From a virus, in the IMG/VR virus record IMGVR_UViG_3300045988_136221, positions 89,223 through 153,222 of that record: a DNA stretch of 64,000 nt; one strand, given 5' to 3'. The translations under genes were made by a program, and so were the position numbers. The notes under the pieces were generated by a model that was not told the origin of the DNA, did no database searches, and saw only the letters and a program-made list of their open reading frames with translations. Position 1 is the stretch's first letter. Each line of letters starts with the position of its first letter. Positions 2,854-64,000 of this stretch are shown piece by piece.

Positions 2854-3060
2854 ATGGAAAGGAAATTTAAAAATCACTTGGTAGATGTACGCGGATTGTC
2901 CAGGAAAGAAGCCGCAAAGAAACGGAATGCAGCGTATCGTGAATTTATGTTGTATCGTGATATTCACGAAGCATATCATTCCGAAATAGGAAAAGATAAA
3001 TGCAAGCGTAAAACACATACATCACGAACATACGTGAAAGAAAACATAAACAGTATTTAA
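2854..3060 (+). CDS. hypothetical small basic protein (68 aa)
   Basis: ORF track; preceded by conserved box; followed by terminator. Confidence 0.5.
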   Translation: MERKFKNHLVDVRGLSRKEAAKKRNAAYREFMLYRDIHEAYHSEIGKDKCKRKTHTSRTYVKENINSI

Positions 3061-3067
3061 ATAGGAA

Positions 3068-3104
3068 TAGGGTTGTTCTGAATATCGGAACAGCCCTATT
3101 TTCG
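3068..3104 (+). terminator. Rho-independent terminator
   Basis: Stem tagggttgttc/gaacagcccta (one G-U) with loop tgaatatcg, then TTTT. Confidence 0.55.
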
Positions 3105-3261
3105 TATCCTACTCTTTCTATTTACGGGTAGGATATTCTGAGAGTGAACGGAGGATGCGGACAATATTGGTCTAAAACGAAACAAAAATAGTGACATTCG
3201 GATATAACGCCGGTATTTTGTCTATATATAATCGCTCTAATTGGTCTAAAACGAAACTAAA

Positions 3262-3307
3262 GGCGGTTTTCGGACCCAAAATAGGGTGTCGGATGCCGCC
3301 TTTTTCG
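3262..3307 (+). terminator. Rho-independent terminator-like hairpin
   Basis: ggcgg...ccgcc stem with structured interior, followed by TTTTT. Confidence 0.4.
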
Positions 3308-3413
3308 TCTCTATGGAATTGAAATTAGGCTTATTGTATTTTTCTTAAAAATAAGGTATTCTTGATTATCAATTAGTTAGGTTTTATAATATCCGTATTT
3401 TCGGACATACTTA

Positions 3414-3599
3414 TTGTATAATTTTTGTTTTATGTGGTGGTTTTTATTAGTCGCTGACCTATATTTTTTATCGGTTGGTATCCGTTCTATGTTAGAGTAC
3501 GGACCGGATCAGTATAATGTTGTAATGGTCTTTTGTTTTTTGTTATTGGCTATTGTTATAGGTTTGAATATCTATCTTGACAGGAGTAGGAGGCGGTAG
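3414..3599 (+). CDS. small hydrophobic membrane peptide (61 aa), putative
   Basis: ORF track; almost entirely hydrophobic (two predicted TM segments) with basic RRR tail; isolated ORF in otherwise non-coding 1.1-kb region. Confidence 0.35.
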   Translation: MYNFCFMWWFLLVADLYFLSVGIRSMLEYGPDQYNVVMVFCFLLLAIVIGLNIYLDRSRRR

Positions 3600-3786
3600 G
3601 GCGTGGGCTGAAGGTTCTCTATTCTCTCTATGGAATGATATTCTATCCAAACAACCCACACTCCATGCCATAGTATAAGCCTGTAGCGTCCTACTTAAGC
3701 CGGTAGTAGGTGTTAGAGCGTAGGTCCTATGCGGAAAGCGAGAAAGATGGACGGGAGTTGGAGAGGGGGAGAGGGAGGGCACTTCC

Positions 3787-4190
3787 TTCCCACAAAATTC
3801 AACAGATCAGAGTTTTAAAACAGTATTCTGTAGGTTTTCCCACAAAATTCAACAGATCAGAGTTTTAAAACAGTATTCTGTAGGTTTTCCCACAAAATTC
3901 AACAGATCAGAGTTTTAAAACAGTATTCTGTAGGTTTTCCCACAAAATTCAACAGATCAGAGTTTTAAAACAGTATTCTGTAGGTTTTCCCACAAAATTC
4001 AACAGATCAGAGTTTTAAAACAGTATTCTGTAGGTTTTCCCACAAAATTCAACAGATCAGAGTTTTAAAACAGTATTCTGTAGGTTTTCCCACAAAATTC
4101 AACAGATCAGAGTTTTAAAACCGCATAATGTGAGTTCCTTCCCACAAAATTCAACAGATTAGTAGTTTAAAACAGCATTCTATAGGTTAG
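3787..4190 (+). repeat. 50-bp direct tandem repeat array, ~8 units (6 perfect + 2 degenerate)
   Basis: Unit ttcccacaaaattcaacagatcagagttttaaaacagtattctgtaggtt repeats head-to-tail with exact 50-bp period from 3787; units 7-8 diverge (4121 onward). Each unit contains the 10-bp palindrome GTTTTAAAAC. Confidence 0.9.
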
Positions 4191-4219
4191 TAGTAAGTGA
4201 AATGTTTAACAATTAAAAT

Positions 4220-4489
4220 ATGGACAATATGAACGTATATGATTTTGCACCTGATTTAGATTTAAGTAAAGAAGTAGAAGGTTCCATTTTTGGGGTAAGA
4301 GGAATGGAAGGCAGTGATGGTATAGTATATGCTAAGGTAGTTAGCTGTATAGACGTCAAGGATTACAGTTGTGAGAGATGTATTTTTTATGATTGTTATA
4401 AGGATACATGTTCGTTATGGGGTAGTGATAGTTGTATAGATGGGGATTGGTTTTGTAGGTACGAACAGGCTGCCATAGAGGGGGAGTAG
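4220..4489 (+). CDS. Cys-rich small protein (89 aa)
   Basis: ORF track; 10 Cys in C-terminal half; immediately downstream of tandem array. Confidence 0.5.
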   Translation: MDNMNVYDFAPDLDLSKEVEGSIFGVRGMEGSDGIVYAKVVSCIDVKDYSCERCIFYDCYKDTCSLWGSDSCIDGDWFCRYEQAAIEGE

Positions 4490-4500
4490 GCGGCGTCTTG

Positions 4501-4540
4501 GGCTAAGGCCTGCGGTTGTAGGTAGGACGTAGGCCTTAGC
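4501..4540 (+). other. hairpin (10-bp stem ggctaaggcc/ggccttagc), conserved-loop family
   Basis: Loop tgcggttgtaggtaggacgta resembles the family loop; directly after stop of 4220..4489. Confidence 0.45.
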
Positions 4541-4594
4541 AGAACAAGAACAGTTTATTGTGGAACGTAAAAATAAAAAGGAGGAGATAGTGAT

Positions 4595-4675
4595 ATGAAA
4601 AAGGCATTTAAGATATTTTCTATTATGTTCGTCATAGAAATAGTGCTGATAGCTATTTTAGATGCTATGGCGTAA
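4595..4675 (+). CDS. 26-aa hydrophobic micropeptide (MKKAFKIFSIMFVIEIVLIAILDAMA), putative
   Basis: Not in ORF track (too short). Strong SD aaaaaGGAGGagatagtgat 7 nt before ATG 4595; TAA at 4673. Confidence 0.3.
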   Translation: MKKAFKIFSIMFVIEIVLIAILDAMA

Positions 4676-4717
4676 GTAATAAAAATTTCTTCATTAATTT
4701 TCTTATGCTTTAGACAG

Positions 4718-4747
4718 AGTGCCCCCGTCTGCGAAGATCGGAGCACT
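4718..4747 (+). other. hairpin with conserved loop (ccCGTCTGCGAAGATCGG)
   Basis: Stem agtgc/gcact; loop matches family core GTSYGYGARGAT. Confidence 0.4.
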
Positions 4748-4777
4748 TGCTTTATGGGATTCATGGTGAAATAGGTC

Positions 4778-4822
4778 GGTTCGATTCCGGCGATCTCACA
4801 CAATATTAAAAACAAATGAGGT
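4778..4822 (+). promoter_or_regulatory. GGTTCGATTCCGG box + leader, 45 nt upstream of ATG 4823 (copy b)
   Basis: GGTTCGATTCCGGCGATCTCACACAATATTAAAAACAAATGAGGT-ATG; aligns with copies at 2809 and 6027. Confidence 0.45.
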
Positions 4823-5227
4823 ATGTTAAAAGAAGAATTTGAAGACTTTATTAAGAGAGAGGTAAGTGATGAACTTTACAAAGATATAGAGGTAGTGTAT
4901 AATGCTCTGCCTGAATATATGGATAAGTTGTATTTTGCAGACGCTATATTAAAAGATACAGGGAAGACTGTAAATGTTTTGTCGGCTTTAGGAGTACACA
5001 TACGTGAATTGAATAACGCACGCATAATCGAAAAAGAAAAGATTAGATCGTGTGCGTATGATTTGATACATAAGGCTCATGACGAAGATGATTTAACAGC
5101 AAGGGAGATTGCTGTTAAATTGATCGGAGAAAGGGAAACGGTAGCGTATTCTGTAAGGGAGGGTCTGCCATTATGGGAGCATGATAAAAAGTTTATAATA
5201 GAGTTAATGAAGGAGGAAAGAAAATGA
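4823..5227 (+). CDS. hypothetical protein (134 aa)
   Basis: ORF track; ATGA stop/start overlap with next gene. Confidence 0.55.
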   Translation: MLKEEFEDFIKREVSDELYKDIEVVYNALPEYMDKLYFADAILKDTGKTVNVLSALGVHIRELNNARIIEKEKIRSCAYDLIHKAHDEDDLTAREIAVKLIGERETVAYSVREGLPLWEHDKKFIIELMKEERK

Positions 5228-5571
5228 AAGATGGCATTACATTACATCCGGAATATGGATTGAATCCGTCTATAGAAGTCTGCATGATATGTGGCGAAGA
5301 GATGGGGATTGCTTTATTAGGGAATAACATCAAAGGGCAGGCACCGCATCATATATGCACGGGCGGAGTATGTGACAATTGCAAAAAGATAATAGATGAT
5401 GGTGGTTGTTTTATTATCGAGGTTGAAGATGGTTCAGATCAAAAGAATCCGTATCGTACAGGAAGATATTGCGCGATAAAGAAAGGGGTGGCAAAGAAAA
5501 TGTTTGGAAAGGAACATAGCATTGTGTACATGGAAAAGTCTGCATTCAGTCAAATGATACCACAAAAATGA
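5224..5571 (+). CDS. zinc-ribbon-containing protein (115 aa)
   Basis: ORF track; CxxC..C..C..CxxC pattern (CMICGEE...HHICTGGVCDNCKK); AGGAGG SD upstream. Confidence 0.55.
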   Translation: MKDGITLHPEYGLNPSIEVCMICGEEMGIALLGNNIKGQAPHHICTGGVCDNCKKIIDDGGCFIIEVEDGSDQKNPYRTGRYCAIKKGVAKKMFGKEHSIVYMEKSAFSQMIPQK

Positions 5572-10703: not shown

Positions 10704-10870
10704 CATACTCCCATAGCTAAAGCGAATGGGATTCTTGGATACAAACGTATGGAACCCCTGCATTTCTGCAACCGGAATTACCCATACTTTCCAATTCGGA
10801 AATGCCCTTCCGAAGTATATTACGGGCTGCAAGAACATCACGGTCGTTTACCGCTCCGCACGCTGGGCAT
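10700..10870 (-). ncRNA. putative TnpB omegaRNA (reRNA) overlapping tnpB 3' end
   Basis: By established TnpB biology the guide RNA scaffold is encoded at the 3' end of tnpB and the right end. Here the right end terminates ~17 nt past the stop. Extent not verifiable by eye. Confidence 0.3.
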
Positions 10871-11856
10871 ACCCACGTGCGGTCGCGTAACGACAATCCT
10901 TTATTAATGCAGCCACATTCGCAAGTTTTGGAAGAAGGATACCATTTGTCAATCTTGTGTATCGTTACTCCATACTTTGAAGCAACATACGTAAGTTTGT
11001 TAATAAAAGAAGAATGACTGAGGTCAGAAACTTTCTTTCCCCACAAACGTTTCATTCCTTCAATGTTTAGATCTTCAATGAAAATATAATCATACTGTTT
11101 GCATAACTGGTGTGCTAATCCCCATTGAAAATCCGATCGAAGATCGTTTATTTTACGATACGCTTGTTGTAGTTCAAACAGTCTCCTTCTTCTATTATTG
11201 GATCCTTTCTTTGCATTAGAAAACCGTTTGTTTAGTTTTCTAATCTTGTTTTGATATTGTTTGAAGAATAGTGGAGAATCAATTTTGTTCCCATCACTTT
11301 TAGTTAGATAAGTTTTCAGGCCAAAATCCAATCCGATAGATGCACCATCATGTGTCTTTCTATAAGAGTTTATAAGATTATGATCTGTAATAATTATCAG
11401 ACTATATCGATGACATGTTTCTCTAACTATTCTTATTTGTTTAACATTACCTTCGTAGACCCTACTGTATGAGAATTTAAATCGTTTCTTTCCTTTGTTG
11501 ATTGTTAAACAATTACCATTCAGGGTAAACCCTCCTTGTTTGAAAACAAAAGAGTTAAAACAATCAGCTCTTTTGAACTTAGGTGGTCGTTTAGCCAACT
11601 TCTTGAAGAAACGATTGTATGCTGAGTCTAACCTTTGAATAATTTCTTGTGTTGTTTGGGAATGAAGAAGATTTCTCTTAATTCTTTTAGAGAAATGCTT
11701 TTGCATCTTACCAACTGGTATGTATTTTCCAAACAGTTTGTAATATCTACGTTGTAGGGATAAAGCATGATTCCATACAAAACAGCATTCGCGAAGCATC
11801 TTATCAAGATACTTCGTTTTCTTGGAATGATAGATGTTGTATTTGTATGAAATCAT
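10717..11856 (-). CDS. tnpB: TnpB (IS605 OrfB-family RNA-guided nuclease)
   Basis: 379 aa; C-terminal zinc finger (CECGCINKG..CPACGAVNDRD) and RuvC-III-like motif (DVLAARNILRKG); D..E RuvC segments (GLDFGLK; IFIEDL); typical TnpB architecture. Confidence 0.85.
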   Translation of the reverse strand: MISYKYNIYHSKKTKYLDKMLRECCFVWNHALSLQRRYYKLFGKYIPVGKMQKHFSKRIKRNLLHSQTTQEIIQRLDSAYNRFFKKLAKRPPKFKRADCFNSFVFKQGGFTLNGNCLTINKGKKRFKFSYSRVYEGNVKQIRIVRETCHRYSLIIITDHNLINSYRKTHDGASIGLDFGLKTYLTKSDGNKIDSPLFFKQYQNKIRKLNKRFSNAKKGSNNRRRRLFELQQAYRKINDLRSDFQWGLAHQLCKQYDYIFIEDLNIEGMKRLWGKKVSDLSHSSFINKLTYVASKYGVTIHKIDKWYPSSKTCECGCINKGLSLRDRTWVCPACGAVNDRDVLAARNILRKGISELESMGNSGCRNAGVPYVCIQESHSL

Positions 11857-37280: not shown

Positions 37281-38296
37281 TAGTACCTAATACACATCTG
37301 CTATATAAGGAATTTAATGGCGTAAAACGTCTTGCTATATCTTATTCTCAGATAGATACGTTTTTAACATGCCCAATGAAATGGTATAAAACTTATATAG
37401 AAGGAAAGAGATCTACAGAAAAGCAGGAGGCTACATCTTATGGTACGGTCATTCACAAGACATTGGAATACTTTTTTAAAAACGGGAAACAGCCTTCTGG
37501 TAAAGATCTTGGGGAAGCTATAAGTTACTATGCTTACCAAGAAGACATACCTTGGCAATCACCAGAGAATATGATGATAGCCATGAAGCAATCTGGAGAG
37601 CTTCTTGCTTGGATTGTGGATCTTTTTAAAAAAGACGGGAATAGATTTATGATAGCTGATAGTGATCTTAATCCTTGTGAGAAACTTATAAGACATGGTG
37701 CTATAGTTGGAGTCGAAGAAGATTTTGTGCTGCCGTACCGTCTTCCTAAGCCAGTTGATATAAATGGGACCGTTCATACTCATGTGTATATAGTGGGGTC
37801 GGTAGACCTTCATCTGGCTATAAAGAGCAAAGGAGTGATCCATCATTATGTCATAGATTGGAAATCGGGGAATAAGGTTTTTGATTCTAAGAAGCTGGAA
37901 ACAAATTTACAGCATCCTATATATTCGTTTTACATCTATAGAAGATATGGTGGGGTTCTACCAGATATGAACATATATTTCTTTACCAGGACCAGGCAGT
38001 ACCAAAAGGTTAAGGTAGATGAGGAACGTAAAACAAAATCTATAGAGATGCTAAATGACACTTTATCTAAAATGTATGATTTTGAAGATAATAGTGTAAA
38101 ATCATTTCAAGCGTACATCCAGGGAGCAGAAGGAGCCAGGTATAGCAAGCGGCGTGCCACCCTAAGCCAGCCTGTTCCGCAAAACAAGCTACCCTGCCCG
38201 TCGGCGCTGTGTTATTATTGCGATTTTGGATTACATAACAAAAATGAATGCCCTTTCTCTTCAGATTGGGATCCGTCTAAAAAGATAAAGCAATGA
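37277..38296 (+). CDS. Cas4/RecB-family PD-(D/E)xK exonuclease with Fe-S cysteine cluster
   Basis: N-terminal ISYSQIDTFLTCPMKWY (SxS...CPxxY), VIDWKSG (D-x-K), and C-terminal CPSALCYYCDF..ECP cysteines consistent with the 4-Cys cluster of Cas4-like nucleases. Confidence 0.55.
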   Translation: MIVPNTHLLYKEFNGVKRLAISYSQIDTFLTCPMKWYKTYIEGKRSTEKQEATSYGTVIHKTLEYFFKNGKQPSGKDLGEAISYYAYQEDIPWQSPENMMIAMKQSGELLAWIVDLFKKDGNRFMIADSDLNPCEKLIRHGAIVGVEEDFVLPYRLPKPVDINGTVHTHVYIVGSVDLHLAIKSKGVIHHYVIDWKSGNKVFDSKKLETNLQHPIYSFYIYRRYGGVLPDMNIYFFTRTRQYQKVKVDEERKTKSIEMLNDTLSKMYDFEDNSVKSFQAYIQGAEGARYSKRRATLSQPVPQNKLPCPSALCYYCDFGLHNKNECPFSSDWDPSKKIKQ

Positions 38297-38466
38297 AATA
38301 CGAAGACATTCAAAAGTTAAGAACAAAATACCGGCAAGATCCGGAAGTTATAAACATAGAAGACATGCGAAACGTTGCTGTAAGATGCGGGAATTTCAAG
38401 AAAGCATTTGAGCTTCAAGAAAAGCTGGAGGATATATGGTTTAACTACTTAAAAGGAATACAATGA
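38293..38466 (+). CDS. hypothetical small protein (57 aa)
   Basis: Not in track (<60 aa). ATG overlaps stop of upstream gene (ATGA) and its stop overlaps ATG of downstream gene (ATGA): translational coupling on both sides. Confidence 0.4.
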   Translation: MKYEDIQKLRTKYRQDPEVINIEDMRNVAVRCGNFKKAFELQEKLEDIWFNYLKGIQ

Positions 38467-38783
38467 AAGAAGTTTTAATGGTTGGAGTAATAGCCTTTTT
38501 CTCATCATACTTGTTTATGACAGCTCTTATAAAAATAAGTAGGGCAGTAGATCGTTATAAGATGAAGAAGAAAACTGACAAAATCAAAGTTGGGCAACGA
38601 TATGAATCAAGAAACTTCTTTATGGATCCGTATGAAAGAGGGAAGCATATTGTTAGGATACTGGATATAAACAACGGATATGCGTTGTATAAGTACGAAT
38701 CTGGTTCTAATACGTTATATTCTACAGAACTTGAAGATATTGTTAAAAGATATGTTTTAATTACTGACGTTAAACACAAGTAA
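38463..38783 (+). CDS. hypothetical protein with N-terminal TM (106 aa)
   Basis: ORF track. Confidence 0.5.
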   Translation: MKEVLMVGVIAFFSSYLFMTALIKISRAVDRYKMKKKTDKIKVGQRYESRNFFMDPYERGKHIVRILDINNGYALYKYESGSNTLYSTELEDIVKRYVLITDVKHK

Positions 38784-38786
38784 GTC

Positions 38787-39164
38787 ATGAAAAAAGAAGT
38801 TACACTCAAGGAGGACATGGCTGCGTTTTATAGAAATGCAGGAAAGGAACTATGGATTTATAACGGACTTTTTAGAAACAAGGTATTGTCTATAAAAAAA
38901 GATAAAGCCATTATCATGTGTGAAACTGATGCTGAATATTCTGTGCTGATAGAAGATAATCAGTTTATTGCCGTAGCAAAAAACATGGATTATGATTACT
39001 GCCGTGCATTCACATTAGGCAATGCTGAGGCTTATGGCGATCGTATGGGCATATCGTGCAGTGTATGCCTGCTTGAAGATGACGAAGATAAGGCAAGGGA
39101 GATGTTAAAGGAGGCGATAATAGAACTTTCAGAAAACAGTAAAATAGATTGCGATGGGCTTTGA
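38787..39164 (+). CDS. hypothetical protein (125 aa)
   Basis: ORF track. Confidence 0.5.
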   Translation: MKKEVTLKEDMAAFYRNAGKELWIYNGLFRNKVLSIKKDKAIIMCETDAEYSVLIEDNQFIAVAKNMDYDYCRAFTLGNAEAYGDRMGISCSVCLLEDDEDKAREMLKEAIIELSENSKIDCDGL

Positions 39165-41523
39165 ACTTAGACCTTACCAAAAAGAAGCAGTAGATGCCGG
39201 GCTTAAGTTTCTCACGGGAAGATCTAAGAAGCCTGGCATAATCGTAGCCCCATGCGGATCAGGAAAGAGCCTTCTAATATCCAAGATAGCGCATGAGATA
39301 AATAGACCGACGTTAGTATTGCAGCCCTCGAAAGAGATTCTGGAACAGAATTATGCAAAGGCTACATCATTTGGATCTGAGCCGACCATATACTCTGCTT
39401 CATGTGGAAAAAAAGAGTTATCATCCATGACCTACGCCACACTTAAAAGCATAAAGAAAGACGTAGCAAGGCTGAAAGATATAGGGATAGACACGTTGTT
39501 AATAGACGAATGTTTTACTGGAGATGTGGAAATATTAACTGAAAAAGGATTTACTCAATTTAATAAATTGGAACAAAATGTAAGGGTAGCTCAATATGAT
39601 AAAGGATTTATTGATTTTGTGACACCTATCAGATATATCAATAAACCGCACGATGGTGATATTTGTTTACTTCATATTAAACATGGAATAGATCTTCCAG
39701 TAACAAAGAATCATGATTTCTTGTTTTATGATAAGAAATACGGAAAATGGTATAAACAGAAAATATCTGAAGCTTCTTTTAAATACGGAAAATGCATTCC
39801 AGTATCAGGGATATCGCGTGTAAATAATGGAGAAGACCTACTATCTGATATGGAACGATTATTTATAGCAACACAGGCAGACGGAAATATCCATGTCAAA
39901 AATGATAATGACACAATTGTATCTTTTTCGTTTTCAAAAGAAAGAAAAATAAAAAGGATTCATTATTTATGTAAGAATGCAAACGTTGAGATATGGGAAG
40001 TTAAGAGAAAAATAGGAAAGGGGGAGAATACAAATAATAAAAGAAGATTTATGGTAAGAATGCCAAAGTTTACAACAAAGGATATTCGAAATCATATATC
40101 ATTCCCGATGTCTTATGAAAAAGCAAGATCAGTAATAGAAGAATGCTCTTTGTGGGATGGGAGTATTATAGGCAATACGATGCTTTATTATTCATCAACA
40201 GATAAAACACAGGTGGATTTCTATAATTCTGTAGCTACAATAGCTGGTCACGGATGTTATGTTTCTATTGAGAAGGATGACAGAAAAGAAACATATTCTG
40301 ATGTTTATAGGCTTTTTATAACAAAAGACAAAAAACTAAGAGGCACTAACTCTATGTATAAACGATATGAAAAATACACCGGACAAGTTTATTGCGTAGA
40401 GGTTCCATCTGGATGTATAGTGCTAAGATATAAAGGATATACGTTTGTTTCCGGAAATTGTCATGCAGGGTATTCACCTGAAGAAGGTTCGGAATTTATG
40501 GAATTTATGAGCGAATTTCCACAGGCAAAAGTGCTGGGCTTCACCGCCACCCCCTGCCGCCTCAGAGCCTACAGTTCCATGCTGGAAGGAAACTATAGCA
40601 AACTTAATATGCTGACAAAAGACGAGCATAACTTCTTCAAGAAGTTAGTTCATGTAATACAAATACAAGAGCTAACTTCTCAAGGTTTTTGGTGTCCACT
40701 TAAGTACGAACGATGGTCATTTGACGAATCGGCTCTGATGTTAAACAGTACCGGAGCCGAATATACCAATGAATCCATTAAAGAAAGCATTGTACGAAAT
40801 GGCTTAAACAACTCTATCTACAAGCGCCTTCTTCAGCTTATGAACGAGCGTAAAGCCATTTTGGTCTGTATGGATTCTATCGAATCATGTAATAGAATAT
40901 CAGAGTTCATGAATGCCAAAATGGGAGCCATAACCGGTGTCGTAACATCATTAACAACCAAAAAGAAAAGAGAACAAATTATATCCGATTTCAAGGAAGG
41001 TAAGCTAAAGGTAGTTTTTAATTATTCAACGCTCGCTACAGGATTTGACTTTCCTGAACTTGATTGTGTGATGTTTGGGCGTCCAACATTCTCATATTCA
41101 ACATATTACCAGATATTAGGCCGTGCAGTACGCATCCATCCTGACAAGAAAGAGGCACTGATAGTTGATTGCTGCGACAACATGAGACGCTTTGGTCGGA
41201 TAGAAGACTTGACAATCGAACAATTCCCTTCTAAGGGCTGGTGTATGTTTGCCGGCGATCAACTTCTGTCCAATATAAGGATGGGTGATATTATTACCAA
41301 AGACGAGATCCTTCGTCGGGCAGCCTCGCTTAAATCTGTAAATGGAGATGATAGGAGAGAAGACGATCTTGACAGTATAATAATGTGGTTTGGTAAATAT
41401 GAAGGGATTAGATTCAAGGACATACCGGTGTCGTATTTTAGGTTCTTGGCTGAGAATATGGCAGTAAAACCAGGAGATAGAAAAGAAAAGATTATCGAAT
41501 ATTATAATAGAATAAAAGCATGA
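39154..41523 (+). CDS. SF2 DExH-box DNA helicase precursor carrying an intein
   Basis: RPYQ (Q-motif), Walker A VAPCGSGKS, motif II LLIDE|C...N|CH interrupted by intein, motif III GFTATP after the intein. Mature helicase ~473 aa. Confidence 0.75.
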   Translation: MGFELRPYQKEAVDAGLKFLTGRSKKPGIIVAPCGSGKSLLISKIAHEINRPTLVLQPSKEILEQNYAKATSFGSEPTIYSASCGKKELSSMTYATLKSIKKDVARLKDIGIDTLLIDECFTGDVEILTEKGFTQFNKLEQNVRVAQYDKGFIDFVTPIRYINKPHDGDICLLHIKHGIDLPVTKNHDFLFYDKKYGKWYKQKISEASFKYGKCIPVSGISRVNNGEDLLSDMERLFIATQADGNIHVKNDNDTIVSFSFSKERKIKRIHYLCKNANVEIWEVKRKIGKGENTNNKRRFMVRMPKFTTKDIRNHISFPMSYEKARSVIEECSLWDGSIIGNTMLYYSSTDKTQVDFYNSVATIAGHGCYVSIEKDDRKETYSDVYRLFITKDKKLRGTNSMYKRYEKYTGQVYCVEVPSGCIVLRYKGYTFVSGNCHAGYSPEEGSEFMEFMSEFPQAKVLGFTATPCRLRAYSSMLEGNYSKLNMLTKDEHNFFKKLVHVIQIQELTSQGFWCPLKYERWSFDESALMLNSTGAEYTNESIKESIVRNGLNNSIYKRLLQLMNERKAILVCMDSIESCNRISEFMNAKMGAITGVVTSLTTKKKREQIISDFKEGKLKVVFNYSTLATGFDFPELDCVMFGRPTFSYSTYYQILGRAVRIHPDKKEALIVDCCDNMRRFGRIEDLTIEQFPSKGWCMFAGDQLLSNIRMGDIITKDEILRRAASLKSVNGDDRREDDLDSIIMWFGKYEGIRFKDIPVSYFRFLAENMAVKPGDRKEKIIEYYNRIKA
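39511..40458 (+). other. intein (316 aa) with LAGLIDADG homing-endonuclease domain, inserted inside helicase motif II (DE^CH)
   Basis: Begins with Cys (CFTGDVEILTEKG, block A), block B VTKNHDFLF (TxxH), LAGLIDADG-like LFIATQADGNI and LWDGSIIGN, ends ...FVSGN followed by Cys (CHAGY). Penultimate residue is G rather than the usual H. Confidence 0.7.
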
Positions 41524-42546: not shown

Positions 42547-44028
42547 ATGGAAAAGATGGATGATATTATTATACCAAAGGGGGAAAGCGTGGTTATTAAC
42601 AAAGATGTTCATGCTTATAAAACATTAGTAGCCCAAAAAGGACTTAAGGTAGTGTGTGAAAAAGATATCAAAAAGGGAGATAAGGAGGCTACGCTGTCGT
42701 ATGAAGGTCGTATGGAAATCGATATACCAATTGAATATATACTGAAGAGTAATAATATCCTTTTCAAAGAGGGAGAATTGCTTTTTGTTAAAAAGGATTA
42801 TTCTTTTAAAGATAACATTGTTCCTGGAGGAGCTATAGTTGAGTTGGCGGAAGATGTCTACAATGTAGATGTTATGGCTGTCATATATTATGAAGGGGGA
42901 AAGACTTGTATGCCCTTAGAATTATTAGAACCTGTTAGTTCAGAAAAAGGCAATAGTGAAAAAGAAGGGAAATCAGTGAAAAATGACATCATTGATGATA
43001 AACTACGATGGGATTTGCTTCCGATGGAAGAAATTGAGGACATTGTAAAAGTCTATCATGCCGGAGCTAAGAAATATGGGCCTAATAATTGGCAGAATCT
43101 TGACAATGGCATAAATAGGTATAGAGCTGCAAGTCAAAGGCATATGATGGAGTATTTAAGAGGAAATAAGATAGATGAAGAAACGGGGTGTTATCATCTT
43201 GCGCAATGCGCATGGAATATTATTGCTATGTTATATCTTGATAAACATGGTCACGGTATAAATGTAGATAAAGCTAAAACTAATAGATTTATAGAAAAAG
43301 CAACACTGGTCCATAATGGACGATATGATTACTCGAACGTTGTTTATATAAAAAACGATGAGAAGGTAGAAATAATATGTAAGACTCATGGATCGTTTAT
43401 GCAAACACCTCATAATCATTTAAACGGAGCAGGATGCCCAAAATGTCATATAGATGGAAATAAAAGACTTATATGCGGAGTAGGAATAAATGATTTTTAT
43501 GGGAAAAAGACAGATAGAAGTTATAATGTATGGATGCATTTAATAAAAAGATGTTATTCTAAAAATAAAAAAGGAGCATATAAAGATTGCACCGTGTGCG
43601 ATGAGTGGAAATTATACAGCAACTTTAAGAAATTTTATGATGATAATTGCAAAAATGACACATTCCACTTAGACAAAGATATACTTGTTCAGGGGAATAA
43701 AATATATTCTCCAAATACATGCTTATTCGTGCCAGAGGAAGTAAATGAGACTATAACGTCAGAATGGAGTGATAATAAATCATTACCTGTAGGTGTAACA
43801 ATGACAAAACTTGGTAAATTTAGAGCAAGATGTTGTGATGGATCCAAAAATGGCAAACAGAAACATCTTGGAGTATTCGACACACCTGAAGAAGCATTTG
43901 AGGCGTACAAAGAGGCGAAATTAAATAGACTGAAAAAGTTAGCGGAAAAATATGTAAAAAGTGGAGATATAGACAAAAGAGTGTACGATGCCATATTAAA
44001 CTATAAAATATTACCATTTAAAGCTTAG
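42547..44028 (+). CDS. multi-domain protein: N-terminal region with RWDLLP-containing domain + HNH-type endonuclease + AP2 DNA-binding domain
   Basis: C-terminal LPVGVTMTKLGKFRARCCDGSKNGKQKHLGVFDTPEEAFEAYKEAK is a textbook AP2 domain; preceding Cys/His cluster (CKTHGSF..HNHLNGAGCPKC; CTVCDEW) is HNH-like. Middle LRWDLLPMEEIEDIVKVYHAGAKKYGPNNW resembles the phage dATP/dGTP-pyrophosphohydrolase N-terminal domain as I remember it (unverified). Confidence 0.45.
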   Translation: MEKMDDIIIPKGESVVINKDVHAYKTLVAQKGLKVVCEKDIKKGDKEATLSYEGRMEIDIPIEYILKSNNILFKEGELLFVKKDYSFKDNIVPGGAIVELAEDVYNVDVMAVIYYEGGKTCMPLELLEPVSSEKGNSEKEGKSVKNDIIDDKLRWDLLPMEEIEDIVKVYHAGAKKYGPNNWQNLDNGINRYRAASQRHMMEYLRGNKIDEETGCYHLAQCAWNIIAMLYLDKHGHGINVDKAKTNRFIEKATLVHNGRYDYSNVVYIKNDEKVEIICKTHGSFMQTPHNHLNGAGCPKCHIDGNKRLICGVGINDFYGKKTDRSYNVWMHLIKRCYSKNKKGAYKDCTVCDEWKLYSNFKKFYDDNCKNDTFHLDKDILVQGNKIYSPNTCLFVPEEVNETITSEWSDNKSLPVGVTMTKLGKFRARCCDGSKNGKQKHLGVFDTPEEAFEAYKEAKLNRLKKLAEKYVKSGDIDKRVYDAILNYKILPFKA

Positions 44029-56329: not shown

Positions 56330-57562
56330 TTACTTTAATATAATCGGATGCCTCTTCCCTCTAATGAGTTTAAACTTTTTGCGTGAAACATCTTTTGAAT
56401 TTTCTCCGTTGAAATCCCTGATATTGAAACTCCCTGATTTTCTCCTTCCATAAACAAAACATATTTTATTATTATACAACACTTTATCAAACAACCTAAA
56501 ACCAAAAACCTCAAAAGGAGCTTGATTGTTTTTCTTCTTTCCTCCTTTTAAAATTTTCATTTTATGTATTTGCCTATTATGCCTACGAATTAAACGTTTT
56601 AAATATTGACATCCGATTCGTTTCGCATTAATGTTCTTAGAAATGACAAACGCGTCGGATGTATGGGATTTTTCAATCCCGTATTTAATCCGATTATGTT
56701 TCGTAATGTAACCAAACGTCATAGAAACTCTGTCGTATCTGGATCTCAGTTCTTCATACAACTTCCATTTCATGATCCCCATTACGGCCGCGTCGCGAAG
56801 CGACTTGCCTCTTCTGATTTTTAAATCTATATTACCTTTATGGTATTCTTTGTGACAAGTTTCACATAAGGTAATAAGATTAGAAGGGGAATCACCTCCC
56901 GTTTTTCGGGATTCAAGATGATGGACATTAAGGATCTTATCTTTTGACTTCCCTTTACAATACTGACATTTATGCCCATCCCTTGCTAAAACATACTCCC
57001 TTGTGTTCCAAAACTCAAGTTGATCACCTTCCTGGTATTCTTTACCTAATATTTCAGGATTCTTAATCTTTTGAGTATCAAATTGAGCTACTTCAATAAC
57101 AATACGAGATATTGGTAGTATAGAGCAAATATTTTCAATAACACGAATATGAGCGTCTACTTTGTATTTCACCGAAGGTGCTATCCATCCTGAACGCTTG
57201 CTTTTTATTCTATTATTAAAACGAGGTTTTCTATATCTTAACCTGTTCCGTCTTGTTTTCCGTAGCTCTCTTCTGGTAGACAAAAGATCTACGATATCAT
57301 TTCTAAGAATTACTTCACTGCTGTAAAGTTCTTTGCTTTTCGTTGTAGCTGATAGACCAACGTGTTTGGTCCCAGCATCAACGCCTAACACAATTTCTTG
57401 TTTGTAATCAGATGTGACGTACGTTAATTTGATGGTAAACGGACATAAGCTCACAACAACTGCCTTGTTTTCTTTAAGCAGTCGTCTTACCTTACCATGC
57501 CTTGTTGTAGGCATCATAGGTTTACCATCTATGTCTTGTACGTACACCATATCTACAAACAT
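56330..57562 (-). CDS. iscB: IscB (OMEGA RNA-guided RuvC+HNH nuclease, Cas9 ancestor family)
   Basis: N-terminal PLMP domain (DGKPMMPTTRHGKVRRLL); RuvC-I LGVDAGTKHVGLS; Arg-rich bridge helix TRRELRKTRRNRLRYRKPRFNNR; RuvC-II RIVIEVAQFD; HNH HKCQYC...LNVHHLESRKTGGDSPSNLITLCETCHKEYH; RuvC-III HTSDAFVI. Confidence 0.85.
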   Translation of the reverse strand: MFVDMVYVQDIDGKPMMPTTRHGKVRRLLKENKAVVVSLCPFTIKLTYVTSDYKQEIVLGVDAGTKHVGLSATTKSKELYSSEVILRNDIVDLLSTRRELRKTRRNRLRYRKPRFNNRIKSKRSGWIAPSVKYKVDAHIRVIENICSILPISRIVIEVAQFDTQKIKNPEILGKEYQEGDQLEFWNTREYVLARDGHKCQYCKGKSKDKILNVHHLESRKTGGDSPSNLITLCETCHKEYHKGNIDLKIRRGKSLRDAAVMGIMKWKLYEELRSRYDRVSMTFGYITKHNRIKYGIEKSHTSDAFVISKNINAKRIGCQYLKRLIRRHNRQIHKMKILKGGKKKNNQAPFEVFGFRLFDKVLYNNKICFVYGRRKSGSFNIRDFNGENSKDVSRKKFKLIRGKRHPIILK

Positions 57563-62613: not shown

Positions 62614-62985
62614 TTATGAAACTTCTATTTCATAATGCGAAGCCTCTGTTTCAACTATCAATCTTCCCTCTCCTTCGAACTCAACACTGTCATTTCCCGG
62701 ACCAGTAACAAAAGGGAAATCAGATACGGATGTTACATAATCTCCAGAACCACCGGAAAAAGACTGACTTTTACTTTGTTTGTAATTGATAGTCAATTGT
62801 GTTTTACCTGGCTGAAGAGTTCCAGATAAATTTTTAGTATAAGTGGTGGTAGTCGTAATATTCCCATTTTTATAGCAATACATTATAAAGGTAGTAACCG
62901 GACTCTTTTTAATATTACTATCTGGACCTTCATGTTGACATACTCCCATCGCTAAAGCAAATGGGATTCTTGGATACAAACGCAA
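62614..62985 (-). CDS. hypothetical protein (123 aa); annotated N-terminus runs into TnpB element right end
   Basis: ORF track; first ~20 codons lie inside the sequence shared with the other IS copy (from 62925), so true start may be an internal Met. Confidence 0.4.
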   Translation of the reverse strand: MRLYPRIPFALAMGVCQHEGPDSNIKKSPVTTFIMYCYKNGNITTTTTYTKNLSGTLQPGKTQLTINYKQSKSQSFSGGSGDYVTSVSDFPFVTGPGNDSVEFEGEGRLIVETEASHYEIEVS

Positions 62986-64000
62986 GAAACCCCGATGTTG
63001 CTATCGTTGGAATTACTCTTGCTTTCCAATTCGGAAATGCCCTTCCGAAGTATATTACAGGCTGCAAGAACATCACGGTCGTTAATTGCACCGCACGCCG
63101 GGCACACCCACGTGCGGTCGCGTAACGACAATCCTTTATTAATGCAGCCACATTCACAAGTTTTGGAAGAAGGATACCATTTGTCAATCTTGTGTATCGT
63201 TACTCCATACTTTGAAGCAACATACGTAAGTTTGTTAATAAAAGAAGAATGACTGAGGTCAGAAACTTTCTTTCCCCACAAACGTTTCATTCCTTCAATG
63301 TTTAGATCTTCAATGAAAATATAATCATACTGTTTGCATAACTGGTGTGCTAATCCCCATTGAAAATCCGATCGAAGATCGTTTATTTTACGATACGCTT
63401 GTTGTAGTTCAAACAGTCTCCTTCTTCTATTGTTGGATCCTTTAACAGATTTAGAAATCCTTTTATTGCATTTCTTGATCTTGTTTTGATATTGTTTGAA
63501 GAATAGAGGAGAATTAATTTTGCTACCATCACTTTTAGTTAGATAAGTTTTCAGACCAAAATCCAATCCGATAGATGCACCATCATGTGTCTTTCTATAA
63601 GAGTTTGAAGGATTATGGTCTGTAATTATAATCAAACTAAAACGTGAACAGGTTTCTCTAACTATTCTAATTTGCTTAACATTACCTTCATAAGGTCTAC
63701 TGTATGAGAATCTAAATCGTTTCTTTCCTTTGTTAATTGTTAGACAATTACCATTCAGGGTAAAACCTCCTTGTTTGAATACAAAAGAATTGAATTTCTC
63801 CGGTGATTTAAACTTAGGAGGTCGTTTAGCCAACTTCTTAAAGAAACGATTATAAGATTCATCAAGACGTTCAAGTATTTCTTGTGTTGTTTGGGAATGA
63901 AGAAGATTTCTTTTAATTCTTTTGGCAAAATACTTCTTCATTTTGCCAACTGGTATGTATTTTCCAAACAGTTTGTAATATCTACGTTGTAGGGATAAAG
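62925..64000 (-). mobile_element. IS200/IS605-family (tnpB-only) element, copy 2 (runs off window end)
   Basis: ~90% identical by eye to 10700-11780 including antisense frames. Diverged, not an exact duplicate. Confidence 0.55.
62952..64000 (-). CDS. tnpB: TnpB, second copy (5' end beyond window)
   Basis: Protein nearly identical to copy 1 through the RuvC and zinc-finger region (…WVCPACGAINDRDVLAACNILRKG…), divergent C-terminal tail. Reading frame still open at position 64000. Confidence 0.8.
   Translation of the reverse strand, partial: LSLQRRYYKLFGKYIPVGKMKKYFAKRIKRNLLHSQTTQEILERLDESYNRFFKKLAKRPPKFKSPEKFNSFVFKQGGFTLNGNCLTINKGKKRFRFSYSRPYEGNVKQIRIVRETCSRFSLIIITDHNPSNSYRKTHDGASIGLDFGLKTYLTKSDGSKINSPLFFKQYQNKIKKCNKRISKSVKGSNNRRRRLFELQQAYRKINDLRSDFQWGLAHQLCKQYDYIFIEDLNIEGMKRLWGKKVSDLSHSSFINKLTYVASKYGVTIHKIDKWYPSSKTCECGCINKGLSLRDRTWVCPACGAINDRDVLAACNILRKGISELESKSNSNDSNIGVSCVCIQESHLL

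Follow-up and report, generated by a model that had tools for sequence, protein, structure and literature searches.

An apparently functional LAGLIDADG intein in the DE-CH box of a DNA helicase gene of an epsilon crAss-like gut phage

RESULTS

A helicase gene interrupted within motif II

In a 64,000-nucleotide (nt) stretch of viral DNA (IMG/VR record IMGVR_UViG_3300045988_136221, positions 89,223 to 153,222; hereafter the window, numbered from its first letter), a gene for a DNA helicase carries 316 amino acids (aa) in the middle of a catalytic motif, the DE-CH box. What is this segment, is it excised from the protein, and can it still move from genome to genome? A preliminary description, made from the sequence alone, had taken it for a LAGLIDADG intein splitting motif II (DE^CH; carets here mark insertion points and splice junctions) of a DExH helicase of superfamily 2 (SF2). 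Our analysis bears this out, well beyond what chance could produce. The segment at 39511 to 40458 is very probably a full-length, apparently functional intein, consisting of a HINT splicing domain with a nested LAGLIDADG homing endonuclease, and both splicing and endonuclease activity are predicted for it. We identify it as an intein because related phages have a precisely empty allele, because it has a HINT plus LAGLIDADG fold, because its splice residues are conserved and because it has homologues in unrelated host proteins. The coordinates of its parts are collected in Table 1.

The open reading frame (ORF) of the helicase runs uninterrupted over 789 aa. A Pfam scan found ResIII at aa 3 to 120 and Helicase_C at aa 557 to 661, both over the Pfam cutoffs, and among PHROG families the protein matched phrog_16, "DNA helicase" (E = 2e-68). 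The RadD model matched with an E value of 5.5e-57, a match that lies well below the equivalog cutoff of that model. Assignment to the helicases is further supported by GSGKS at aa 35 to 39 and by a DECH box that becomes contiguous only once the intein is removed. The insertion point falls between Glu119 and the Cys of the DE-CH box, which is motif II (Walker B) of the helicase. The intein's first residue is Cys120 of the precursor, whose codon starts at nt 39511, the last is Asn435, whose codon ends at nt 40458, and the residues that follow are CHAGY; between these limits the intein reads CFTGDVEI...VTKNH...LFIATQADG...ECSLWDG...VYCVEVPSG...FVSGN. These are exactly the boundaries, and the length of 316 aa within the 789-aa ORF, that the preliminary description had given. 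It had also stated that removal of the segment restores the DECH box, and removal in silico indeed yields a 473-aa protein with a contiguous ...LLIDE-CHAGY..., equal in length to the helicase of the phage described next. The G+C content of the insert is 31.2%, against 40.8% in the exteins, and this suggests a foreign origin.

When the surrounding 4.1 kb were compared by megablast with 50,697 phage genomes, a single relative was found, the epsilon crAss-like phage crAssE-Sib from the human gut (OR575929), with 87.6% DNA identity in two pieces that leave out the insert; no annotated genome in that collection has this exact intein allele. The source phage is an epsilon crAss-like gut phage close to crAssE-Sib. 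The helicase of crAssE-Sib (WOZ57338.1) has exactly 473 aa and is 96.8% identical to that of the window, with an alignment gap precisely at aa 120 to 435. Its empty site reads GACGAA^TGTCAT in DNA, and placement of the 948-nt indel is ambiguous by 0 to 3 nt because intein codon 1 and the +1 codon are both TGT. The search for intein-free orthologues that the preliminary description had proposed was therefore answered by crAssE-Sib and also by twelve further clusters of empty alleles.

These clusters came from a search with the spliced helicase sequence, whose best 120 matches fall into three allele types with extein identities of 96 to 98%. Empty alleles form the twelve clusters of 473 aa (96 to 98% identical), the motif II intein allele forms one cluster of 789 aa (P0161, with 511 members at 90% clustering), and alleles with a different intein in the P-loop form 107 clusters of 817 or 820 aa, whose exteins are 96 to 97% identical to the window helicase. 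No helicase allele with both inteins was seen among these 120 matches. We do not take cluster-member counts as allele frequencies, since the 817-aa proteins, with their 107 singleton clusters, seem to have been clustered unevenly. At least 24 contigs encode the exact 789-aa protein of the window; they come from independent samples, with near-complete genomes of about 150 kb among them, and the six copies of this allele that were fully compared are 100% identical in DNA across the gene.

The P-loop intein of the sister phages (contigs L018, at 3001 to 5454, and L019; proteins P0172 to P0278) has 344 aa, interrupts the Walker A site as APCG^SGKS, has the form C...HHN^S, matches Pfam Hom_end_hint and contains LAGLIDADG motifs. 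Like the motif II intein, it has a LAGLIDADG endonuclease and occupies an ATPase motif of this helicase, within one and the same phage population (the 817-aa allele, e.g., P0205), but it differs in its Walker A site, in belonging to another intein lineage and in its canonical ...HHN^S terminus. Residue 36 of the helicase (aa 35 and 36 are encoded at 39256 to 39261, in the P-loop) falls on position +1 of the site used by the P-loop intein, and it varies among alleles that lack this intein, being Ser in the window, Cys in crAssE-Sib and Ala in P0159. This polymorphism could be a footprint of the P-loop intein endonuclease or an immunity to it.

The insert belongs to a large family of phage inteins

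The matches of the insert to curated intein hidden Markov models (HMMs) are below threshold (see below), and we therefore relied on inserts in PHROG families, on the fold and on the empty allele as evidence of membership. Over its whole length, the segment matches the insert of phrog_12229, a ribonucleotide reductase (RNR; E = 1.5e-20), and that of phrog_32482, a PhoH-like protein (E = 1.2e-10). Homologous inserts with 28 to 61% identity lie in helicase motif II, in the Walker B motif of an AAA+ ATPase and, in the RNR small subunit, at two sites. With tblastn, full-length matches were found in 214 phage genomes, in RNR beta, RNR alpha, NAMPT and DNA polymerase, and the phages concerned infect Staphylococcus, Vibrio, Escherichia, Mycobacterium, Prevotella and others; the five matches that were translated all start with Cys and end in xGN^C/S. 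The same module recurs in unrelated hosts (RNR beta, NAMPT, DNA polymerase, AAA+ ATPases and helicases); in every case it interrupts a catalytic motif and has the form C1...GN^C/S/T. A profile built from 11 inserts and run against 1.84 billion proteins retrieved 15,355 representatives at E <= 1e-3, of which 2,073 reached E <= 1e-30, and at E <= 1e-10 the family has about 9,500 members. In the window itself, a six-frame scan with the family HMM for a second copy gave only the helicase intein and a 14.5-bit match near nt 5520 without intein features.

An AlphaFold2 model of the intein, built on the family alignment, has a predicted local distance difference test score of 91.7 and a predicted template modeling (TM) score of 0.89. 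According to DSSP, two beta-rich lobes flank a double alpha-beta-beta-alpha-beta-beta unit. The best Foldseek matches to the model in the Protein Data Bank (PDB) are endonuclease-bearing inteins, namely, TliVMA (E = 4e-14), PhoVMA, PI-SceI, PI-PfuI and PI-TkoII, and the Foldseek probability is 1.00 for TliVMA, PhoVMA, PI-SceI, PI-PfuI and the split intein AceL NrdHF, which matches the splicing domain, in agreement with a HINT fold. PI-SceI (Sce VMA), TliVMA/PhoVMA and PI-PfuI share with the window intein a two-domain build in which a pseudo-dimeric LAGLIDADG endonuclease splits the HINT domain (E values from 4e-14 to 3e-9) but differ from it in sequence (about 10% identity), in size (360 to 540 aa), in having extra DNA recognition regions, in their His-Asn terminus and in an Asp at position 4 of block F (F:4). 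Single-sequence PDB searches with the full intein and with a mini-intein from which the endonuclease had been deleted returned nothing relevant; only family profiles detected AceL NrdHF (PDB 6ZGQ).

Conservation within the family was assessed on the window copy and the 150 best representatives, which together gave 169 full-length instances. The window intein has the consensus residue at 57 of the 57 positions that are conserved in at least 75% of these instances. Blocks A (CFTGDVEI) and B (TKNH), two LAGLIDADG-like motifs and an SGN terminus followed by a +1 Cys had been listed in the preliminary description, and we find all of them in place. The insertion context is DE^CH in 112 of the 168 database instances, a proportion to be read with a seed profile that was biased toward helicase inserts. 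Two inteins of this family occur in one and the same protein in 17 of the 150 best representatives (members P0012 to P0158); in P0014 they occupy aa 102 to 414 and 417 to 747, with a single extein residue between them.

Inteins are well known from the Walker A and B motifs of helicases, of clamp loaders and of terminases (Novikova et al. 2016, PMC4760082; PMC5050341), with PolIII gamma and the mycobacteriophage TerL1-e as Walker B examples (PMC4760082; PMC5050341). The window intein resembles those in its insertion at the nucleotide hydrolysis motif of a replication or repair ATPase, although crAss-like phage helicases lie outside those surveys. Reports of inteins in crAss-like phages concern the Delta and Zeta groups and, for the most part, TerL (PMC7886860), and the paper that describes crAssE-Sib and the epsilon crAss-like phages makes no mention of them.

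The homing endonuclease and the mobility of the intein

The order of secondary structure elements in the middle domain fits the pseudo-dimeric alpha-beta-beta-alpha-beta-beta-alpha fold of LAGLIDADG enzymes. In Foldseek this domain matches I-DmoI (E about 2e-5; TM score on the target, 0.54 to 0.58), and I-Tsp061I and I-SceI match as well. Beside both LAGLIDADG Asp residues, the endonuclease positions K143, R145, K146, W215, D256 and R258 are intact in the window copy.

During co-infection, the free intein endonuclease, with Asp124 and Asp216 as its catalytic residues, would cut intein-less alleles at or near ...ATAGACGAA^TGTCAT..., whereupon repair templated by the genome with the intein would copy the element, which is homing. 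The sequence at the empty site of crAssE-Sib or contig L015 is TTATTGATAGACGAA^TGTCATTCAGGATATTCT. The preliminary description had taken the element to be still capable of homing; this is plausible and may reasonably be supposed, because the catalytic Asp residues are intact, because the conserved positions show no decay and because empty and occupied alleles coexist.

If the intein had arrived by homing, its flanks might be expected to bear traces of the donor. The exteins diverge most from four alleles that are empty at the motif II site in a stretch from about -180 to +120 nt around the insertion. Relative to crAssE-Sib, 48 of 300 positions (16%) near the insertion differ, against 68 of 1,140 (6%) elsewhere (Fisher P = 1.4e-7, for a window chosen post hoc). 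Such a peak is the pattern expected from co-conversion with a more divergent donor and may be regarded as suggestive of it. Against this it must be said that the limits of the peak were set after the data had been seen and that the region is a recombination mosaic, so the peak is no proof of homing. Contig L008, which encodes P0161, is identical in DNA to the window over at least 850 nt upstream, the whole intein and about 460 nt downstream; beyond that point identity is about 94%, with 35 differences in the last 600 nt of the helicase gene, which places a recombination breakpoint inside the gene. Both this block and the flank data fit homing, and ordinary recombination might also account for them.

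The main alternative on this point is that the intein splices but that its endonuclease is inactive or without targets, so that the element is inherited vertically or moved by ordinary homologous recombination. We consider this rather improbable. In its favor, a block of at least 2.2 kb, made up of the 948-nt intein with about 850 nt on its upstream and about 460 nt on its downstream side, is identical in the two backgrounds, after which the extein diverges, as general recombination could also bring about, and the 100% DNA identity of the six exact-allele copies leaves no internal variation from which selection on the endonuclease could be judged. Against it, the endonuclease has lost neither its LAGLIDADG acidic residues nor any other position conserved in the family, and the phage population offers abundant empty sites, the setting in which homing endonucleases persist; elements that have become fixed, by contrast, decay. 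In addition, a distant relative, the Bethlehem RDF intein described below, has an endonuclease whose activity suffices to make it toxic in E. coli (PMC5050341).

Splice residues, characterized relatives and a proposed splicing route

Near the C-terminal junction, the family departs from the textbook intein. A penultimate His (position 6 of block G [G:6]) and a His in block F that assist cyclization of the terminal Asn are common in inteins but not obligatory. Here there is no block F His, the candidate positions 303 to 305 being Ile, Val or Leu, and the penultimate residue is Gly315 in 167 of 169 instances, followed by Asn316 in all 169 and by a +1 residue that is Cys in 151, Ser in 14 and Thr in 4. 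The preliminary description had called the penultimate Gly an uncommon variant, and this part of it needs correction: within the family Gly is nearly invariant, and characterized relatives splice with it (PMC5050341, PMC7891396). In block F, Cys295 is kept in 166 instances (the other three have Gly), Pro299 in 154 and Arg306 in 155, with Lys in another 12. The members with Gly in place of the block F Cys are P0008, P0098 (its first intein) and one other. At B:12 (residue 70), the window intein has Phe, and the family has Met, Leu, Gln, Ile, Phe or Val but never Trp; at G:5, which is Thr in class 3 inteins, the window intein has Ser314, and the family has Thr in 70 instances, Ser in 39, Val in 30 and Ile in 18.

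Two experimentally characterized inteins are related to this family. The first is the intein in the recombination directionality factor (RDF) of mycobacteriophage Bethlehem (MP-Be gp51), which splices completely in a reporter and whose splicing is strongly slowed by the change G316H (Kelley et al. 2016, mBio, PMC5050341); its endonuclease is toxic in E. coli (PMC5050341). The protein called gp51 in that study is gp52, "phosphoesterase," in AY500153. The family profile matches this intein end to end (E = 1.8e-15), and in a pairwise comparison it is 22% identical to the window intein (E = 3e-6). Both inteins have almost the same length (317 and 316 aa), Cys1, a TxxH motif (TANH in Bethlehem), a nested LAGLIDADG domain and an [ST]-G-N terminus (TGN^S in Bethlehem); the block F of the Bethlehem intein, VWCLRVP, shares with that of the window the pattern V-[YW]-C-[VL]-x-V-P, and both inteins lie beside an invariant catalytic motif of a phage DNA metabolism protein. 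Unlike the window intein, the Bethlehem intein has a metallophosphoesterase/RDF host, Ser at +1 and a diverged LAGLIDADG motif 1. The class 3 DnaB intein of MP-Be was not found with the family HMM in the 30- to 45-kb region of Bethlehem, where only the RDF intein matched.

The second relative is AceL NrdHF, the only significant sequence match of the family profile in the PDB (E = 6.7e-8). A family profile without the endonuclease aligned with it end to end (E = 7.5e-12), followed by Mja KlbA (1.5e-5) and the class 1 DnaX and DnaE inteins (0.018 or higher), and AceL NrdHF is also the best structural match among mini-inteins (Foldseek TM score on the target, 0.79). In the profile alignment, the family block F Cys falls on AceL Cys124, which is Ala in the crystallized mutant, and the Thr-Gly before the terminal Asn falls on T144-G145. 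AceL NrdHF is an atypical class 3 intein of the "MCT" type, for which the class 3 pathway has been proven, and lies at the site SIRDE^...^SMH of RNR beta (PMC7891396). It has Ala1, S65, H68, M70, C124, P128, T144, G145 and N146 and lacks both assisting histidines (PMC7891396), and the half-time of its splicing is about 4 min, activity being abolished by C124A or C124S and likewise by G145H (Hoffmann et al. 2020, PMC7891396). It resembles the window intein in the numbering of Ser/Thr65 and His68, in a hydrophobic residue other than Trp at B:12, in a Cys at F:4 and a Pro at F:9, in Thr or Ser at G:5, in the Gly-Asn terminus and in the absence of both histidines. It differs in having Ala1, and thus no N-terminal nucleophile, in being naturally split, in its Ser at +1 and in a free-standing GIY-YIG gene instead of a nested LAGLIDADG domain.

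The window intein falls into the family "Cys1 ... VYCVxVP ... GN" by end-to-end profile similarity and by its residues C1, T65, H68, C295, P299, G315 and N316. The family combines the N-terminal Cys1 of class 1 with a nearly invariant block F Cys of the kind found as the catalytic nucleophile in the nearest solved relative. Cys295 and the missing block F His, on which the preliminary description had not remarked, tie the family to a class 3 intein, and AceL NrdHF may be an Ala1 offshoot of this phage family, which probably includes MP-Be gp51.

We considered class 3 membership for the window intein itself on account of its F:4 Cys and its phage helicase host, and we rejected it, since Cys1 is present, Trp is absent from B:12 and G:5 is variable. 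Of the class 3 hallmarks, it has the Cys at F:4; it does not lack a nucleophile at position 1, and it has no Trp at B:12. By its residues, the window intein carries the class 1 signature and falls outside the class 3 definition.

From the conserved residues and the characterized relatives, the following route can be proposed. After folding of the 90.6-kDa precursor, Cys1, helped by Thr65 and His68 of block B, would turn the Glu119-Cys1 peptide bond into a thioester. The N-extein would then be handed to the +1 Cys, possibly with the involvement of Cys295, sited between the two junctions in block F. Asn316 would cyclize without the usual penultimate and block F histidines, next to the Gly315 typical of the family, and an S-to-N shift would restore the DECH box in a helicase of 53.9 kDa, with a free intein of 36.8 kDa as the other product. 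The ligated helicase would carry the junction peptide ...LLIDECHAGYSPEEGSEF... and would read ...DTLLIDE-CHAGYSPEEGSEF... across the splice point.

The route might depart from plain class 1 splicing if Cys295 were an obligatory nucleophile, either attacking the N-terminal junction as in class 3 or relaying the N-extein from Cys1 through Cys295 to the +1 Cys, with Cys1 partly redundant or serving redox or disulfide control. Conservation of Cys295 in 166 of 169 instances, at a position (F:4) that is usually Asp in standard class 1 inteins (PMC2807308), speaks for such a role, as does the alignment of Cys295 with the essential branch-point Cys124 of AceL NrdHF, the closest solved relative by profile and a class 3 intein. 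AceL NrdHF moreover shares its RNR beta site (SIRDE^...^SMH) with Cys1-bearing members of the family (SVRDE^C...GN^C[IL]H), and the G316H mutant of the Bethlehem RDF intein formed disulfide-bonded precursors (PMC5050341). On the other side, an invariant Cys1 (169/169) points to a class 1 first step, the three members with Gly at F:4 retain all other splice residues, so that the scaffold apparently works without a block F Cys, and the class 3 hallmark Trp is missing from B:12, with G:5 not fixed as Thr. On balance, an obligatory role for Cys295 seems unlikely to us, though it deserves to be kept in view, and we retain the class 1 route.

How firmly the segment can be called a working intein

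Several observations weigh against the segment being a functional intein. Pfam PF14890 (Intein_splicing) scores 15.2 bits against a cutoff of 35.8, and NCBIfam TIGR01445, aligned to residues 1 to 71, scores 21.7 bits against a cutoff of 24.5. The penultimate His and the block F His, the usual aids to Asn cyclization, are both absent, and a residue that compensates for them is not evident, Arg69 of AceL NrdHF corresponding to Asp69 here. In addition, the Bethlehem intein, which has been tested by experiment, is a distant relative (22% identity). As regards the models, the preliminary description had suggested alignment to intein HMMs, and the outcome is divided: the curated models stay below threshold, whereas the family profile and the PHROG inserts match the whole segment. 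The curated intein models miss this family, which is too divergent for PF14890 and TIGR01445.

These low scores and the missing canonical penultimate His are what could be said for a degenerate, splicing-dead insertion that makes the helicase of the source phage a pseudogene. We regard this as very improbable. The ORF is uninterrupted and retains every family-conserved residue, the exact allele is found on at least 24 contigs that include near-complete genomes of about 150 kb from independent samples, and a penultimate Gly, the rule in this family, goes together with fast splicing in relatives that have been tested. That the segment is instead a native, non-excised accessory domain of the helicase, for which nothing but its in-frame position speaks, is effectively refuted by its splitting of the catalytic DE-CH box, its absence to the residue from orthologues 96 to 98% identical, its HINT fold with all splice junction residues and the presence of the same module in unrelated enzymes. 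A LAGLIDADG intein thus remains our reading of the locus.

Table 1. Features of the intein-bearing helicase gene, in window coordinates
Feature	Position (nt)	Strand	Details
Helicase precursor ORF (N-extein + intein + C-extein)	39154..41523	+	789 aa, 90.6 kDa; SF2/RadD-like DNA helicase
N-extein, aa 1-119	39154..39510	+	Walker A APCGSGKS; ends with Asp118-Glu119 of motif II; corresponds to the crAssE-Sib 473-aa orthologue up to E119
Intein, 316 aa, 36.8 kDa, Cys1...Gly315-Asn316	39511..40458	+	Precise absence from orthologue, homologous inserts elsewhere, fold
Block A CFTGDVEILTEKG, nucleophile Cys1	39511..39549	+	Cys1 169/169; E7, L9, T10 and G13 also conserved
Block B TxxH (T65-K-N-H68)	39703..39714	+	T/S65 169/169, H68 169/169
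LAGLIDADG homing endonuclease domain, about aa 105-272, between the two HINT lobes	39823..40326	+	DSSP: two alpha-beta-beta-alpha-beta-beta units; Foldseek
LAGLIDADG motif 1 helix DMERLFIATQADG, putative catalytic Asp124-Gly125	39847..39885	+	Helix 113-124; D124 163/169, G125 162/169
LAGLIDADG motif 2 helix YEKARSVIEECSLWDG, putative catalytic Asp216-Gly217	40114..40161	+	Helix 202-215; W215 167/169, D216 161/169, G217 157/169
Block F QVYCVEVPSGCIVLR, Cys295 at F:4 (nt 40393-40395), Pro299, without block F His	40384..40428	+	Family alignment
Block G YTFVSGN + Cys+1	40438..40461	+	Ser314 at G:5, Gly315 penultimate, Asn316 terminal; Cys+1 is the C of DECH
C-extein, aa 436-789	40459..41523	+	Starts with Cys-His of motif II; carries Helicase_C

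Other loci in the window

About 1 kb downstream of the helicase gene, a 493-aa ORF (42547 to 44028, plus strand) fuses a dATP/dGTP diphosphohydrolase (PF18909, aa 150 to 238) in frame to a C-terminal module of about 255 aa, which has a weak AP2 match and, in the precomputed Pfam annotation of an identical gene, DUF723. The orthologue in crAssE-Sib has 185 aa, and two close relatives (contigs L010 and L012) encode an enzyme of 236 to 239 aa followed, at the same place, by a separate NUMOD4/HNH_3 gene. This locus looks like a second hot spot for genes of the homing endonuclease type.

Upstream of the helicase gene, two small genes (about 38100 to 39000, or -1057 to -457 from the insertion) have only 55 to 73% DNA identity to all compared relatives, and the genes that flank them have 92 to 100%; the small-gene cassette is hypervariable or has been replaced. 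Elsewhere in the window, ORFs of 379 and 329 aa (10717 to 11856 and 62952 to 63941, both on the minus strand) with OrfB_IS605 and Cas12f1-like TNB domains encode TnpB-type transposon-associated nucleases, and a 410-aa ORF (56330 to 57562, minus strand) with an RRXRR domain (E = 9e-60) and an HNH endonuclease domain encodes a putative mobile nuclease. An ARAGORN scan of the 64-kb window for tRNA and tmRNA genes was negative.

DISCUSSION

For annotation, our results mean that the 789-aa ORF is better described as a 473-aa helicase plus a 316-aa intein. In terms of intein biology, the window intein itself is ordinary, a further member of a very common phage type. Its setting is of wider use: in a widespread lineage of human gut epsilon crAss-like phages, the helicase gene has at least three coexisting alleles, empty, with the motif II intein and with the P-loop intein. 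Because these alleles coexist, the intein is useful as a strain marker and as a natural system in which homing could be watched in gut phage populations.

The family to which the intein belongs deserves notice for its size, for how poorly curated HMMs capture it and for a Gly-Asn terminus that is a fixed trait and not a defect. Whether its second Cys, Cys295 in the window intein, is catalytic bears on the evolution of class 3 splicing. It is conceivable, though we think it quite unlikely, that a family with Cys1, a block F Cys, a Gly-Asn terminus and neither assisting histidine bridges class 1 and class 3, with Cys295 as a required second thiol (a relay or an alternative first nucleophile) and with class 3 inteins of the "MCT" type of AceL NrdHF arising by loss of Cys1 at the same sites. 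If this should prove true, class 3 splicing, for which a phage origin has been proposed, would have in this family an ancestor that is concrete and can be put to the test.

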